This document shows positions 1 through 6,240 of a DNA stretch of 64,000 nt, in pieces. Numbering within the stretch: position 1 is the first letter of the stretch; each line of letters opens with the position of its first letter. The notes beneath the pieces were generated by a model. The model was not told the origin of the DNA. It did not search any database and saw nothing but the letters and a program-made list of their open reading frames with translations. The stretch comes from Octopus sinensis (Eukaryota). Position numbers and translations under genes: made by a program. The stretch is taken from the NCBI RefSeq assembly GCF_006345805.1, contig NC_043011.1, positions 44,590,464 through 44,654,463 of the forward strand. The letters are read 5' to 3'.

Positions 1-233
1 AAGATCAAAGCCTCTGCCCCCACCACTAGAAACCACAAAAATTTAATAATGAACTAGCGGGACCTATGGAAATTCCAGTGTAAGTCAGCATATTTGAACA
101 CACTCTGTTAATATATTAAACACAAGCAAGGAATTTCAAAAAATTCTTTGGAAATCCTACCATTTTAAGATAAAGGTGTAACATCCACAGCTATTTTACA
201 TTATTTTAACTATTTATTGATGTATCTTTTGTG

Positions 234-568
234 TTACCAGCGATGCCTTACTGGCACTTGTGCTGGTGGCACTTGAAAAAAAATTCGAGCGAGGTTGTTG
301 CCAGTGCCGCTAGACTGGCTCCTGTGCAGGTGGCACATAAAAAACACCATTTGAGCATGGCTGTTGCCAGTACTGCCTGACTGGCCCTCATGCCAGTGGC
401 ACGTAAAAGCACCCACTACACTCTTGGAGTGGTTGGCATTAGGAAGGGCATCCAGCTGTAGAAACTCTGCCAGGTTAGATTGGAACCTGGTTCGCCAGTC
501 CTCAGTCAAATCGTCCAACCCATGCTAGCATGGAAAGCGGACATTAAACGATGATGATGATGATGATC
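234..568 (+). mobile_element. RTE-LINE 3' UTR fragment ending in (GAT)n tail
   Basis: Similar to the 3' UTR downstream of the RTE ORF at 23470-23056 (aagggcatccagctgtagaaac...aacccatgctagcatgg...ttaaacgatgatgat). Confidence 0.8.
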
Positions 569-1442
569 TCAACTGAGCCTAAGGTTTAAACACACAAATG
601 CAGAGTAATATAAACTTTCTTCATCTCTTGTGTATTCTCTTTCTATTTTCTTTCACTGATCCTGTTATCTCAGTTTCTCTCTTTGACTCCCCACTTTCAC
701 TTTATATATTTTTCTCCATTCAAGTTATTACCTCCCTTGGTGTAACACACAGACAAAATAAGAAGACTGCAGGTACAAGCAGAATAATATTATAGATGAA
801 AATGCAGTGACTACAAAATATGTAGAGGAGGAGGAGGAAAAATTTAATTAACCACATTGTACCTGCTGTGTGTGTGTGTGTGTGTGTGTGTATCTTTGTA
901 TTTGAATTTGTTCCCCATTAGTGCTTGATGACTGTTGGTTTGTTTATGTCCTCATAACTTAACAGTTTGAGAAAAAGAGGTTGATAGAATAAGTATGAAG
1001 CTTAAAAAATAGGTATTGCGGTCGATTTCGTTTGACTAAACCTTTTAAGGTGGTGCCCCAGCATGGCTGCAGTCGAATGACTGAAACAAGTAAAAGATAG
1101 AAATTTAAGAAACAGGGGGTCTTTCAAAATGATTAAAAAACATGCAGACAAATACACAGCCATGACCCCCAGGGGCTTATACACACACGCACATATAGAA
1201 CAGCACTACAAGGCACTGCAAACATATTACTCGGAGTACGTTTGATACAGGTAACACAACAAAACCACAACAAGATCCGGCACACAGCCAAGGCTTATAG
1301 AGCTGTAACTGGGACATGAATTTGTAAGGGAATTAATTTTTTTGAATATAAATGAGGACACAACATTTCTACGACAGATAAGCAGCAAGGGTTACATGCT
1401 GTGTGTATGTATACGTCAGGGGGAGGGTGCAGTCAAACTAAC

Positions 1443-1502
1443 CTGAATTGGTAGAGGCGGTCGCCATTTACGGACACACCTGACATTCTCGTAAGAATAC
1501 CA
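1443..1502 (-). CDS. Putative 60-nt coding exon: WYSYENVRCVRKWRPPLPIQ
   Basis: Acceptor ttatattttcag|, donor CAG|GTTAGT, phase 0/0. In frame with the upstream exon ending ...SSRK. Confidence 0.7.
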
Positions 1503-1699
1503 CTGAAAATATAACCCAGTATAAATGACATGTATAGCAAATATGCAAATACACACACACACACACACGTATCTCAGTGTGCGTGTGTATATACATACAT
1601 ATATATATATATACACACACACACACAAACACGCACACACATATACATATATGTATATATGACCAAACACAAGTAAAAACACAAAAGGGACAAATTTTC

Positions 1700-2075
1700 A
1701 CAGAATGAAGGAACCTATGTCTCATCAGTCGGGGAAGCAGCTCTGTAGGTGTTTCAGCCCCTTCCACCATGACACCAGAGCTGCCTGGGGGAGGGGGGTG
1801 GAGCACCTATGTAGGCAACAAAACACCCCCCACAAGAGCAGAAGCTTTGTAGAGTCAAATGTTGTGACTCTGAGTATGATGTTTCTATCATCCTCAATGC
1901 TCGTCCTTACTGCACTGTTCATCCTCTCTCTTGAGCTAGATGTAATGGTTTGCTTTCTCAGCAGCATCCAACAATTTTCTGACAACATCTTTTCTCTCCT
2001 TCACAGCTAGTCCAAGATTCCTGAGCATTGAGTGAATCCTGGTACCAACAACTCTTCTAACACCAACCTCAACAC
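1700..2075 (-). mobile_element. Decayed 3' end of a HERO-like (restriction-like endonuclease) non-LTR retrotransposon
   Basis: Minus-strand translation across a frameshift gives VEVGVRRVVGTRIHSMLRNLGLAVKERKRCCQKIV/DAAEKANHYI*LKRE. This resembles the EVGxRG...AEKASxWxWxKR C-terminus of HERO-clade ORFs and is followed by a structured 3' UTR. Confidence 0.7.
1718..1790 (-). ncRNA. Candidate non-circularly permuted hammerhead ribozyme in HERO-like 3' UTR (copy 1)
   Basis: GGUGUC (1776-1771) pairs with GAAACACC (1755-1748). Outer helix is GCAGCUCU/AGAGCUGC. CUGAUGAG lies at 1728-1721. UGG-U-GGAAG can pair with CUUCCCCG as stem I. Confidence 0.55.
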
Positions 2076-2137
2076 AAAAGCATATTAAGATCAATTAAGA
2101 TCAAACCCCAGGAGTTGACCAGTATTGTATTTAATCC

Positions 2138-2355
2138 AAGGCGGCGAGCTGGCAGAAACATTAGCACGCAGGGTAAAATGCTTCGTGGTATTTCGTCTGT
2201 CTTTACATTCTGAGTTCAAATTCTGCTGAGGTCAATTTTGCCTTTCATCCTTTCAAGGTCGATAAATTAAGTACCAGTTGCATATCGGTGTCAAACTAAT
2301 CGACTGACTCCACCTCCCCAAAAATTTTGGGTCTTGTGCCTAGAGTAGAAAAGAG
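2138..2355 (+). mobile_element. SINE family B (tRNA-like head, central gcctttcatcctttcggggtcgataaattaagtacc domain)
   Basis: Head aaggcggcgagctggcaga..., B-box-like gagttcaaatt and a conserved central domain. Many other copies in the window. Confidence 0.85.
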
Positions 2356-2544
2356 TATTTTATTTAATCCCTGAAGGATAAAAGACAAATCTCAAGTCCC
2401 CGATGTGATTTGAACCCAGTGTATGAAGATAAGCACGAGGTACTTTGTTTGTCACTAGCAACAGCAATTATAACAAGTTAGAGAGGAAGCCTATACATGG
2501 TAGTTCAACTATGGTGGCGACGATGACAATAATAATAATAAAAT

Positions 2545-3068
2545 TCCCTGATGCAGTACCAGGCATAGCTTCTGTCCTTAACTGATTGGAAGTGTTATCA
2601 TGTACATGTTTTGTCTTGGTATAAAAGATGGGCTACAGCAAATATTCTGCTCAATACCACAGATTTACTTGTCAGTTGTTTGAAATTAACCAGTTGAGCA
2701 TGTCCCTTAGTGACTGACGATAGGTGCATTTCCGATCGCAATCAGAAATAGTGGAGGAGCATTAGTCATGTGTTGAAAGGAATTCTTTGGGGTTTGGATA
2801 ATTCACCTCTGGATTTACGGGTGTTTCGTTCAACAGCCTTAAACAACCCTTATTTAGGGAACTTTTGAGTGGGATGGGCTACTCAACCTGAAGAAAATTC
2901 TAACTGGGCCCCACCTGCAAGTTCATGTGTTGTTTATCTTGGTATGAGATCACCATGTCCCGCACATATGATTGTGATGCATGTGCCTGGAGTAGTCATG
3001 ATGGGTATATTAAGCTTTGTATATTTTACCTTAGTGTCACTTTGATGGCATGCACTGCTCTCTCACTC
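2545..3068. mobile_element. ~520-bp dispersed element embedded in (TAA)n; partial second copy at 3872-4143
   Basis: The two copies share gggccccacctgcaag...cagtgtcactttga...ctctctcactc(aat)n. Copy 1 is flanked on both sides by TAA repeats. No convincing ORF. Confidence 0.7.
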
Positions 3069-3087
3069 AATAATAATAATAATGATA

Positions 3088-3139
<52 letters not shown>

Positions 3140-3156
3140 TAGGGTTTAGATGTTAC

Positions 3157-3422
3157 CTTTCTGGATGAGTTGAAATCTGGAGTTGAAATACTGATGTCTT
3201 TATTAGCAACTGGCCAGAGTTTAAACATCGTCGACCCACTCCAGCCATCCTTACGAATGCCATCCAATGCACTAAGTCCTTCAGACGGAGAGATGTCTGC
3301 CGTAGAATACAGATCCTTAACAGAACAGGGACGGCTTTCAACAGTGAACAGGTTGCATTCGTAGCCATGTTTTGCATCGAATGGTGGTGTGTTCTTGTGG
3401 AATTTCTTCAAGTCAATGGATG
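3157..3422 (-). CDS. Putative internal coding exon (266 nt): (A)SIDLKKFHKNTPPFDAKHGYECNLF...NKDISISTPDFNSSRK
   Basis: Polypyrimidine acceptor ctttttctcttttattccaacag|, donor AAG|GTAACA and an 88-codon open frame of complex sequence amid repeats. Phase 1 in, phase 0 out. Confidence 0.8.
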
Positions 3423-3655
3423 CTGTTGGAATAAAAGAGAAAAAGAAATTAATAAAATCGCTAAAAGAAGAGGGGAAAATTAGTCGAACAAACATTTGAA
3501 CACAAGATGCAGAGACATGCAAAATATCACTAAGCATTTGGTAATTCGTCCATCACTGTGTTCTGAGTTCAAATCCTGCTGAGGTCGACTCTGTCTTTCA
3601 TCCTTTCAAGGTTGATAAAATAAGTACCAGTGGAATAATAATAATAATAATAATA

Positions 3656-3686
<31 letters not shown>

Positions 3687-4173
3687 CTTCTCTACTATGG
3701 GCTCAAGGCCTGAAATTTGGGAGTGGACTGGTCAATTACATTGACCACAGTGTTTCACTGCTACTTAATTTACCAACCCCAAAAGGATGAAAGGCAAAGT
3801 CGACCTCGGCAGAAATTGAACTCAGAATGTAGTGATGGACAAAATGCCACTAAGCATTTCACCTGACATGCTCTGGATGTTTTGTTCAATATCCTTAAAC
3901 AACCCTCATTCAGGGACATTTTGAGCAGGATAAACTACTCAACCAGAAAAAAATTCTAACTGGGCCCCACCTGCAAGGTCATGCGCTGTTTTCTTTGATA
4001 TGAGATCACCATGTTGCACACATATGGTTGTGATGCATGTACCTAGTGCACCCTTATCAGATAGGTAGACATGATGGGTATATTGGGCTTTGTATATTTG
4101 TACCCCAGTGTCACTTTGACGGCATGCGCTGCTCTCTCACTCAATAATAATAATAATAATAATTATAATAATA

Positions 4174-4211
<38 letters not shown>

Positions 4212-4244
4212 GTAATAATAATAATAATAATTATTATTATTATC

Positions 4245-4470
4245 ATAGACGTCACACAGTATACAATATTGTGAGGTTGCTGATTGAAGATATTGTATCT
4301 ACTGTGGGTTTGTACTGTTTGTCAAGTCACAACAAGGACCTCAGACAGACGGAAATTTACACAATATGTGTGCAGTTCCAAGTAATGCCGACTTTTGCAA
4401 TACACCTCTAGATTGTAGGGTATCTCTAAGGTTTTCAGATGTTTTTCAGATTGGGTGGCATTGAACCCAT
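4245..4470 (-). mobile_element. R4/Dong-like non-LTR retrotransposon 3' end
   Basis: Minus strand encodes LEIPYNL.../LQKSALLGTAHILCK, typical of the R4/Dong C-terminus, followed by a 3' UTR ending in (TAA)n. Confidence 0.7.
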
Positions 4471-4815
4471 TATTATTACTATTATTATTATTAAGCAGGT
4501 GAGATGTCAGAATTCTTAGGGCACCAGAAAAAAATGCTTTGGTAGGAATTTGTTCCAGCTCTTTACATTCTGAACTCGAATCCAAATTTAGGTCAACTTA
4601 GCCTTTCATCCTTTTGGGGGTCGATAAAATAAAATATCAGCGAAGTACATTGAAGATGTAGTCAACTTGTTTCCTCCCTTCAAAACTGCTGGCACGTACT
4701 AAAATTAAAAACAATTATCATCACCATCATCATCATCATTGCCATTGCAATTAATCCATTTGTGGTGCCAGTCATAACATATGGTTCCGTATTAGTGGAG
4801 TGGAGCGTAACATAC

Positions 4816-4882
4816 CTAAATAGATTCCACAGACGGTAATGCGATAAACAGCACCATGTAAAAACACAGTATGACTTGACAT
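4816..4882 (-). CDS. Putative coding exon (first coding exon seen) of an unidentified gene: MSSHTVFLHGAVYRITVCGIYL + 1 nt
   Basis: On the minus strand there is an ACTAAC branch-point-like motif near 4912-4917, candidate acceptors cag|4897 and tag|4882, an ATG at 4882 and a donor AG|GTATGT after 4816. The exon ends in phase 1, matching the phase-1 start of the 3422 exon. Sequence is non-repetitive. Confidence 0.6.
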
Positions 4883-5055
4883 CTAACGAACGTACATCTG
4901 TTTGTGAACAGGTTAGTGGTGGTGTTTGGTGGGGGGTGGGGGTGGATTGAATATCAAGGGAAGAATCAGGGAGTACTTCGAGAAGACAGTTATTAGGTTG
5001 GTCCCTACCTTTTAAACTCACAAAAAGGGCAAGCTACACAGGAATCAATTATAAT

Positions 5056-5410
5056 CATCATCATCATCATCGTTTAACGTCCGTTCTCCATGCTAGCATG
5101 GGTTGGACGGTTCGACTGGGGATCTGGGAAGTCAGAAGGCTGCACCAGGCTCCGGTCTTATCTGGCAATGTTTCTACAGCTGGATGCCCTTCCTAACGCC
5201 AACCACTCCGTGAGTGTAGTGGGTGCTTTTTACGTGCCACCTGCACTGGTGCCAGGCGAGGCTGGCATCGGTCACAGTCGGATTGGTGCATTTTACATGC
5301 CACCTGCACGGAAGCCAGTCGAGGCGGCACTGGCTTCGGCCACGATTCGGATGGTGCTTTTTACGTGCCACCGACACAGAAGCCAGTCGAGGCAGCGCTG
5401 GCATCGGCCA
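5056..5410 (-). mobile_element. 5'-truncated young RTE 3' UTR
   Basis: Nearly identical to 22463-22820, including the internal ~60-bp tandem units and the (CAT)n tail on +. Confidence 0.85.
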
Positions 5411-5432
5411 AAACAAAAATGAAGCAAATACC

Positions 5433-5467
<35 letters not shown>

Positions 5468-5707
5468 CCTTTCTACTAATTGCACAAGGCCTGAAATTTG
5501 GGGGGAGGGGACTAGTCGATTACATCGATCCCAGTGTGTAACTGGTACTTATTTCATTGACCCTGAAAAGATGAAAGGTGTCGACCTCAGCAGAATTTGA
5601 ACTCCGTATGTAATGACGGACGAAATGTTGCTAAGCATGTTGCCCGGCGTGCTAACGATTCTGTCAGCTTGCTGCCTTGTTGCTAATAATAATAATAACA
5701 ATAACAA

Positions 5708-5752
<45 letters not shown>

Positions 5753-5994
5753 GATTTCTTTATTAACCACAAGGGTTTACTTTAAGAAAAAACATTATGG
5801 GCAGTACAGGACAAAACAAAGACCCCAGTGCTCAACTGGTACTTATTTTATCAGCCCCATAAAGATAAAAGGCAAAGTTGACCTCAGCAGGGTTTGAACT
5901 CAGTCATAAGGTAAACAGTTGGAAGAAATGTCACTAAGCATTTTGTCCAGCATGGTAGCAATTCTGCCAACTCACTGCCTTGATAATAATAATA

Positions 5995-6240
5995 AAGAAA
6001 AAATAAAAAACTTGCATGGTAATTGACAAGGCATGTCTTGTTGACAAGATCAAAGAGAAAGAAGAAAAACTGAAGGACTCTGACAATTTGAAGTGGGTAA
6101 TAGGCAGGTTATGGGCAATGAAGAGAGTGAACATGATACCAATAGTAATCAGCACGCTTGGAAATATCAGCACTCAACTACCAACATGGCTCAAAAAGAT
6201 TGGTACAAATGTACAGATAGAACACCTACAAAAATCATCA
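5995..6240 (+). mobile_element. R4/Dong-like endonuclease-domain fragment
   Basis: VIDKACLVDKIKEKEEKLKDSDNLKWVIGRLWAMKRVNMIPIVISTLGNIS...EHLQKS resembles the R4/Dong RLE motifs (IDxACP...KxEK...LW...IPIVIGALG...LQK). It begins next to (TAA)n and is truncated by a SINE. Confidence 0.75.

Follow-up and report, generated by a model that had tools for sequence, protein, structure and literature searches.

Retrotransposons of a HERO-like group carry, in the 3′ untranslated region (UTR) behind a single ORF for a reverse transcriptase (RT) and a restriction-like endonuclease (RLE), a hammerhead core arranged in non-circular order, as the original prediction had proposed from one decayed copy. Comparative analysis across families, with strong covariation, shows a predicted fold whose strands follow the order II-5′, III-5′/UH/I-5′, II-3′/GAAA/III-3′, I-3′/CUGANGA, so that stems I, II and III cross one another. 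In our estimate there is an even chance that HERO-like elements move by way of a 3.7-kb protein-coding circular RNA, a hammerhead of this seventh wiring and rolling-circle target-primed reverse transcription.

The copy that gave rise to this study lies on the minus strand of a 64,000-nt stretch of Octopus sinensis DNA (the window), at the 3′ end of a 5′-truncated non-LTR element that we assign to family A. A remnant of the ORF C-terminus, the end of the RLE region, occupies 1894..2094 with one in-frame stop (the family A protein match covers 1900-2082), and its stop codon at 1896-1894 stands 123 nt upstream of the predicted cut. All the segments named in the original prediction were found on the minus strand where it had placed them: GCAGCUCU at 1784-1777, GGUGUC at 1776-1771, GAAACACC at 1755-1748, AGAGCUGC at 1744-1737 and CUGAUGA at 1728-1722, with the predicted scissile bond at 1771/1770. 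The pattern GAAACAC..CUGAUGA occurs once in the window against 0.01 expected, which is a rough guide since the pattern was taken from the same site. Rfam gave no hammerhead match for window positions 1-6000 at E up to 10, and none at the gathering score for 20 loci, 2 of which had intact motifs.

The structural unit, at about 1829-1710, is wider than first proposed. Read along the minus strand, it opens with the 5′ strand of a closing helix, P0 (approximately 1817..1829), which pairs with the bases directly after CUGAUGA and has 3+5 bp in the family majority, retained in the window copy. Hairpin P4 (1801..1816), with 4/6 pairs remaining, separates P0 from the 5′ strand of stem II (1786..1800). 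The latter is a perfect 6-bp partner in the family majority and is damaged here, a C-rich stretch standing in its place and G10.1 being lost. There follow the 5′ strand of the stem III extension (1777..1784), the 5′ strand of stem III with U16.1 and C17 (1771..1776), the CpG-decayed 5′ strand of stem I with its first pair broken (1765..1770) and, after a 3-nt linker, the 3′ strand of stem II (1756..1761), in which position 11.1 is U here and C in the family majority. The remaining segments are G12-A13-A14-A15.1 with the 3′ strand of stem III (1748..1755, core bases kept), the 3′ strand of the extension (1737..1744, pairing with 1777..1784), the 3′ strand of stem I (1734-1729) running into C3-U4-G5-A6-N7-G8-A9 (1728-1722; together 1722..1734), and the 3′ strand of P0 (1721-1710) with the start of the tail (1703..1721), the copy being without the last ~45 nt of the family's 3′ end.

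Every hammerhead core base is present in the window copy. In the register of the family majority it keeps 4/6 pairs of stem I, 5/5 of stem III and 8/8 of the extension, so that the extra helix proposed to lengthen stem III is borne out. The stem I pairing originally drawn is possible, but it leaves an A·A mismatch at the pair adjoining the cut. With the first pair of stem I, G10.1-C11.1 and part of P4 lost, the window copy is probably inactive, a dead ribozyme. Nested-only MFE folding, which cannot model crossing stems, placed it no better than shuffles (z −0.82). Farther along the window, 3157-3420 on the element's strand is an 88-codon exon-like stretch preceded by AG, with no Pfam or Atlas match; if this exon is real, the dead ribozyme may sit in a host intron in sense orientation.

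A search of the Octopus sinensis genome (2.72 Gb), in which 40 of 324 candidates were scored, gave matches about 71-80% identical to the window copy, and two further searches brought the alignment to at least 55 distinct family A copies. These are 5′-truncated and heavily marked by CpG decay, have a 3′ end in common about 65 nt beyond CUGAUGA, and differ from the majority by 21% on average. The core bases are complete in 11/55 copies, a strict pattern search of the genome gave 1 match, and no young family A copy was found among those retrieved from this genome. Family A is old and the variation among its copies is neutral decay; structure therefore cannot be tested from them, and the covariation first suggested as a test among genomic copies proved uninformative, with broken pairs far outnumbering two-sided changes and CpG decay mimicking the latter. 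The expectation that the core would be better conserved than its flanks held in the figures (0.90 versus 0.82 identical), but the copies were fetched with this very region and the flanks include decaying ends. The family majority fits every helix, including the perfect upstream stem II, and in the canonical stem II it has mismatches at positions 2 and 4. A homologue search with a short family A protein fragment gave no match. In two family A loci, L016 and L054, the ORF end and UTR are repeated locally in short tandem arrays; L054 has three such units, spaced by about 263 nt.

A protein search of the same genome with an 84-aa family A fragment as query led to a young family, B, at 38-44% identity, and to a third family, C. 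Family B frames are open up to 793 aa, and the 3,738-nt unit encodes RT (Pfam RVT_1), then a CCHC motif, then a PD..E..K endonuclease motif. The single ORF with RT, CCHC and C-terminal RLE is seen in family B and in the metagenomic locus L200, family A being known by its C-terminal remnant only. Family B is 41% identical over 766 aa to the Tetraodon polyprotein AAN12398, and L200 is 62% identical to it. We take AAN12398 to be Zebulon, and BAC82599, a member of the AAN12398 cluster, is presumably HEROTn. The name HERO-like is given from protein identity; the tree, a quick one of the C-terminal region without named HERO, R2, R4, NeSL or CRE references, was used only for the spread of the motif, which extends over the sampled group. 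A Penelope-like element was considered and rejected: GIY-YIG is absent, the Pfam matches are RVT_1 and zf-RVT only, and the PD..E..K motif is present in the protein alignment A1. The DNA of family C (L333-L346, L104, L110) is 80-87% identical to L200 over 530-870 nt, and the L200 protein is 97% identical to a flatfish protein. The likeness of family C to L200 suggests horizontal transfer between fish and the host's lineage.

Families B and C have the same core order as family A (UH, GAAA, CUGANGA) with different stem sequences, the wiring being common to three unrelated families of one genome. Alignment A1, made of 20 C-terminal protein halves, yielded 246 confirmed stretches of metagenomic DNA; the best 80 were analysed and are 28-57% identical to the query in the best segment. 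A descriptor of the core with stems I and III matched the 3′ UTR in 49 of these best 80 loci, and in 39 of the 56 among them whose sequence continues for 300 nt or more beyond the ORF. The antisense strands of these 80 loci, 298,758 nt in all, gave 0 matches, and one extra sense match lay inside an ORF. The 17 misses among the 56 comprise 7 motifs recognisable with one or few changes, 1 cut off after the cleavage block and 9 loci without the motif; sister elements have theirs 700-740 nt behind the ORF, so some of these 9 contigs may end too early. Because this descriptor selects for the core, a stems-only search, blind to sequence and built on upstream stem II, stem III and stem I, was added for the 56 UTRs. 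The best arrangement bore the full core in 33/56, with U16.1 in 33/33, and position 17 in those 33 motifs was C in 14, U in 9, A in 10 and G in 0.

The protein search of viral contigs returned 2 unrelated loci and the pattern search 0, and prokaryote genomes yielded 68 pattern matches, of which 5 passed stems I and III and 3 had the whole architecture. In these three (L268, L278, L304) the motif is complete, P0 and P4 included; the contigs, of 2.6-3.6 kb, are binned in bacterial MAGs and are probably contamination by host DNA.

We then examined stem II in 37 non-redundant motifs, that is, those under 80% identity. The canonical stem II, formed by the strand after CUGANGA and the strand before GAAA, had 0 bp in 33/37 motifs, and reached at least 3 bp in 2/37 when a 1-nt insert was allowed. 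Alignment A2 holds 32/37 motifs, without L196, L229 and L257, in which the upstream stem is missing, and without L186 and L236; its rows were trimmed at the best partner, which inflates the percentage paired and leaves the cross-family control as the fair test. On A2 the canonical stem II had 43% of cells paired, and 118/500 shuffles were as high. It was rejected on this chance-level pairing and the motifs with 0 bp. The original prediction had ascribed a weak stem II to decay of the copy; the canonical helix is in fact absent group-wide. The strand before GAAA finds its partner 20-26 nt upstream of the cut instead, and the two form at least 5 bp in 31/37 motifs, as against 241/1,332 (18%) in the cross-family control over the same interval. 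Through this upstream partner the 10.1-11.1 pair is GC in 31, GU in 2 and AU in 1 of the 34 motifs with at least 4 bp.

On A2 the upstream stem II had 42 two-sided changes versus 8.5 in shuffles, and stems I, upstream II and III together had 104 two-sided cells versus 25.6, with 0/500 shuffles as high and slid controls all far lower; the cross-family control for stem I gave 89/1332. P0 begins at A9+1 in 34/37 motifs, and in most of them its 5′ strand is followed by hairpin P4 ending at G10.1. The predicted core is one whose A9-10.1 link is opened, with the closing helix P0 and hairpin P4 in its place. Nested MFE folding supports the nested helices for L200 only (z −3.76), the stretches of L136, of a mis-centred L045 and of the window being no better than shuffles. 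In L196 and L244 the core and stems I and III are present, with a stem II partner about 90 nt upstream or very short; P0 adjoins stem II differently in this subgroup, which may be a further variant. The P4 loop contains a self-complementary hexamer in 16/37 non-redundant motifs, UGAUCA in 11 and UGGCCA in 5; such loops occur in L189, L191, L192, L193, L195, L197, L198, L200, L205, L206, L217, L222, L236, L242 and L257. A double change that preserves self-complementarity, the independence of the cases not being assumed, hints at possible dimerisation by kissing loops.

Hammerhead types I, II and III require the circular order UH, CUGANGA, GAAA, and were rejected on the order found, UH, GAAA, CUGANGA. 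A direct link from A9 to 10.1, or one of 1-2 nt, is likewise not found in the HERO-like motifs. Viroid hammerheads can accommodate one more nucleotide between A9 and G10.1. In a solved hammerhead, as far as the available text describes it, A9 pairs with G12 and is stacked on G10.1-C11.1 (PMC11300833). This pairing, with the tolerance in viroids, makes an opening at A9-10.1 plausible, the activity of the opened core being a prediction.

In the available text of Eckert et al. 2023 (PMC10085705), the hammerhead is divided into three indivisible blocks with six possible orders, of which types SGC and CSG were validated, and that text gives no examples in genomes of known organisms save one doubtful bacterial case. 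The HERO-like motif resembles type SGC as described there in the order of cleavage site, GAAA and CUGANGA, in its three crossing stems, in having all core bases and in the short linker between the stem I and stem II strands. In type SGC, however, the strand that follows CUGANGA supplies the second half of stem II and block C is whole, whereas the HERO-like motif takes its partner from upstream and has P0 and P4 at the opened link. The sources also differ: type SGC was found in hairpin-ribozyme metatranscriptome contigs and by searches that took these as seeds, and the HERO-like motifs come from retrotransposons in eukaryotic genomes. Having its stem II partner upstream and not after CUGANGA, the HERO-like motif is not type SGC as that paper defines it. 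The SGC order with block C opened between A9 and 10.1 gives a different rotation of the same crossed topology, and the wiring as predicted lies outside the six permutations. Two points count against our reading as a whole: the opened A9-10.1 link breaks an assumption of the block scheme (PMC10085705, as available), and 9/56 relatives are without the motif. Intact motifs very probably cleave themselves.

To see what such a ribozyme could do for the element, we turned to the insertions of family B. Using the first 225 nt of its unit as query, with 40 of 88 candidates scored, we obtained at least 30 loci, one of them without the start. The element's own 3′ tail, at the same junction, directly precedes 29/29 of the intact 5′ ends listed. 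These upstream tails range from 6 to 984 nt in a smooth spread, with no pile-up at the cut or at the junction. When a 13-locus cluster with a shared breakpoint was counted once, and L136/L137 once, 16 events remained, with tails of 6, 8, 25, 26, 55, 137, 139, 161, 178, 242, 283, 311, 341, 368, 507 and 984 nt. The cut lies at −120: 11 of the 16 tails reach beyond it, and not one ends within 15 nt on either side; from the varied lengths and the lack of stops near the cut, the family B element is without a fixed 5′ end. Inspection by eye of the cut-spanning tails found no indel at the bond in 24/24. One metagenomic contig opens (L193:1-90) with a 92% identical repeat of its own 3′ motif, entered two bases past the predicted cut, a single case that is possibly chance.

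The cluster itself (L143, L144, L147-L155, L157 and L159, at G000:C18:3.78-5.16 Mb and on unplaced contigs) consists of thirteen loci with one family B breakpoint; its five whole members have identical internal deletions, and it is one insertion amplified in a larger duplicated block. Other internally deleted derivatives of family B (L164, L165, L169, L172, L175), with units of about 560-1,450 nt, retain the 5′ region and the ribozyme tail, mostly head to tail, in the manner of retrozyme-like non-autonomous versions.

The two repeats of a locus were then compared. Full-length sequence was taken for 20 loci; L092 and L097 included, both repeats were present in ten, nine of which were informative. 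The upstream and downstream repeats of one locus agreed at 105/109 diagnostic positions, where about 75 would be expected from other copies. Those of L171 agreed at 4/6 sites, those of L092 had 21 variants in common, 6 of them in no other copy, and those of L097 had 4 in common. By distance, the own 3′ end was the nearest match in 2/9 loci only (L092 and L097); post-insertion changes dominate such short repeats and make this nearest-neighbour test weak, and the diagnostic-site test took its place. Nine metagenomic contigs (L191, L192, L195, L199, L205, L225, L226, L242, L250) likewise have a 3′ UTR joined to a related ORF start, or a tail before the ORF. For family A, sequence shared downstream of the 3′ ends was seen in one pair only, apparently another repeat, so that the head-to-tail layout is not established there, unlike in family B.

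The 3′ ends bear on the role of the cut. Copies continue through it and stop 110-120 nt farther downstream; the cut therefore does not define the integrated 3′ end, and the original idea of a ribozyme that simply processes the 3′ end of the transcript is not supported. In 28 of 45 family B 3′ ends the match to the junction sequence breaks off after 4-5 letters; it extends over 6-10 letters in 13 and is shorter in 4. This pattern fits an internal start on a template that continues, and target microhomology could give part of it.

On the basis of these insertions we propose the following route. A genomic copy of an active element that begins with a partial tail would hold two ribozymes, and a read-through transcript cut at both would release a unit-length RNA running from cut to cut. 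The ends of this monomer, clamped by P0, stem II, stem III and the stem III extension, would be sealed into a circle by the ribozyme itself or by an RtcB-type ligase of the host. Target-primed reverse transcription by the element's protein, in many cases at AT-rich targets, would then begin inside the template, about 115-120 nt 3′ of the cut, and copying round the circle until a random stop would produce both 5′-truncated copies and longer-than-unit copies with a matching partial tail. Circles sealed by RtcB are described for hammerhead-bearing retrozymes, and internal priming for a Penelope element, in the available texts of PMC7229834 and PMC11167929, respectively. A circle copied for more than one round gives insertions longer than one unit, and it is from this footprint, present in family B, that we infer the circle. 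The evidence leans towards a cut-to-cut monomer that becomes a circle and is reverse transcribed for more than one round. Against the circle stand the small number of loci with their own 3′ end as nearest match (2/9), the 4/6 agreement at L171, the demonstration of the footprint in family B and not in the window's own family A, and the ability of a linear RNA with a fixed end to give common 3′ ends as well (28/45 after 4-5 letters).

The same footprint would be expected if the ribozyme cuts but no covalent circle is ever closed, and the RT passes the nick by switching template, either from one clamped end to the other or on to a second monomer. R2-group RTs do jump templates, and the four helices would hold two ends together. 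Template jumps usually leave scars, however, and the 24 cut-spanning tails have neither gained nor lost bases at the bond, which makes the linear jump unlikely.

It is less probable still, and we regard it as distinctly doubtful, that the fold is a non-catalytic or rarely cutting recognition element for the RT, derived from a hammerhead, with partial tandems arising from uncut read-through transcripts of parents that are themselves tandem. Such a binding role would suit integrated copies that always cross the bond and contain the tail, the absence of the canonical stem II, and the U at position 17 in 9/33 motifs, the U17 triplet being usually slower. Yet every core base and the exclusion of G at position 17 are kept across proteins 28-57% identical to the query. 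In the absence of regeneration, moreover, an upstream repeat would shorten and drift, whereas the repeats track subfamily alleles together.

A linear RNA that begins at the cut, in the manner of the R2 5′ ribozymes, is very improbable. Such ribozymes are known in R2 from the text available, and partial tails do put a ribozyme 120 nt upstream of the 5′ UTR; an RNA starting at the cut cannot, however, template the sequence upstream of it, which 11/16 events contain, none stopping within 15 nt. Chance resemblance in a decayed repeat, to which the poor folding of the window copy (z −0.82) might point, is excluded for the family by the specificity of the descriptor, the cross-family covariation and the stems-only search.

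The partial tandem layout, as such, has probably been in the literature since 2003, when Bouneau et al. reportedly described partial tandem arrays of the pufferfish element Zebulon without a ribozyme. The literature searched, that outside subscription journals, Repbase and Dfam, held no hammerhead in HERO or RLE elements, no such wiring and no circular HERO intermediate, and a 2026 bioRxiv ribozyme-screen preprint does not name HERO in its main text, as distinct from its supplements. The hammerhead variant and the route of LINE-type transposition that it would serve are thus likely to be new. The wiring falls outside the published block scheme and comes with dozens of covarying natural examples from eukaryotes. 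A motif search designed for types I-III or for the six permutations would overlook it, and a genome with high-copy families holds many such sites. Partial tandem insertions in the RLE clade gain a concrete, testable cause. If the proposed route is true, a LINE-type RT starts inside its template and works on a circle, which matters for gene-insertion tools based on the R2 group.

The systems closest to the HERO-like elements share some of these traits, and the following comparisons hold for the texts of the cited papers as available. HERO is one of five RLE clades and has weak target specificity; our elements resemble it in their single ORF, with RT followed by CCHC and RLE, and in that weak specificity (PMC4640811, PMC3636483). 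The 5′ HDV-like ribozymes of the R2 group, as far as they are described, also free the RNA of an RLE retrotransposon from a longer transcript by self-cleavage, but they are of a different ribozyme class and stand at the 5′ end of an RNA with a fixed start, whereas the HERO-like motif lies in the 3′ UTR of an element without a fixed 5′ end. Penelope-like elements, whose hammerheads lie in pLTRs, have in common with the HERO-like ones their autonomy, an RT joined to an endonuclease, partial tandem repeats, a hammerhead within the repeat and an internal start of reverse transcription; they differ in having a telomerase-like RT, a GIY-YIG nuclease and minimal type I hammerheads, as against a non-LTR RT, a C-terminal CCHC and PD..E..K region and a large pseudoknotted hammerhead (PMC11167929, PMC7229834). 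The metazoan non-LTR retrozymes of Cervera and de la Pena 2020 (PMC7229834) come near the HERO-like model in their hammerhead-bounded monomers, RtcB-sealed circles and tandem spread. Retrozymes, however, are non-coding RNAs of 170-400 nt with type I hammerheads, whereas the HERO-like unit is 3.7 kb long and encodes its own RT-RLE protein (PMC7229834). If the circular route is true, HERO-like elements would have converged with Penelope elements and retrozymes.
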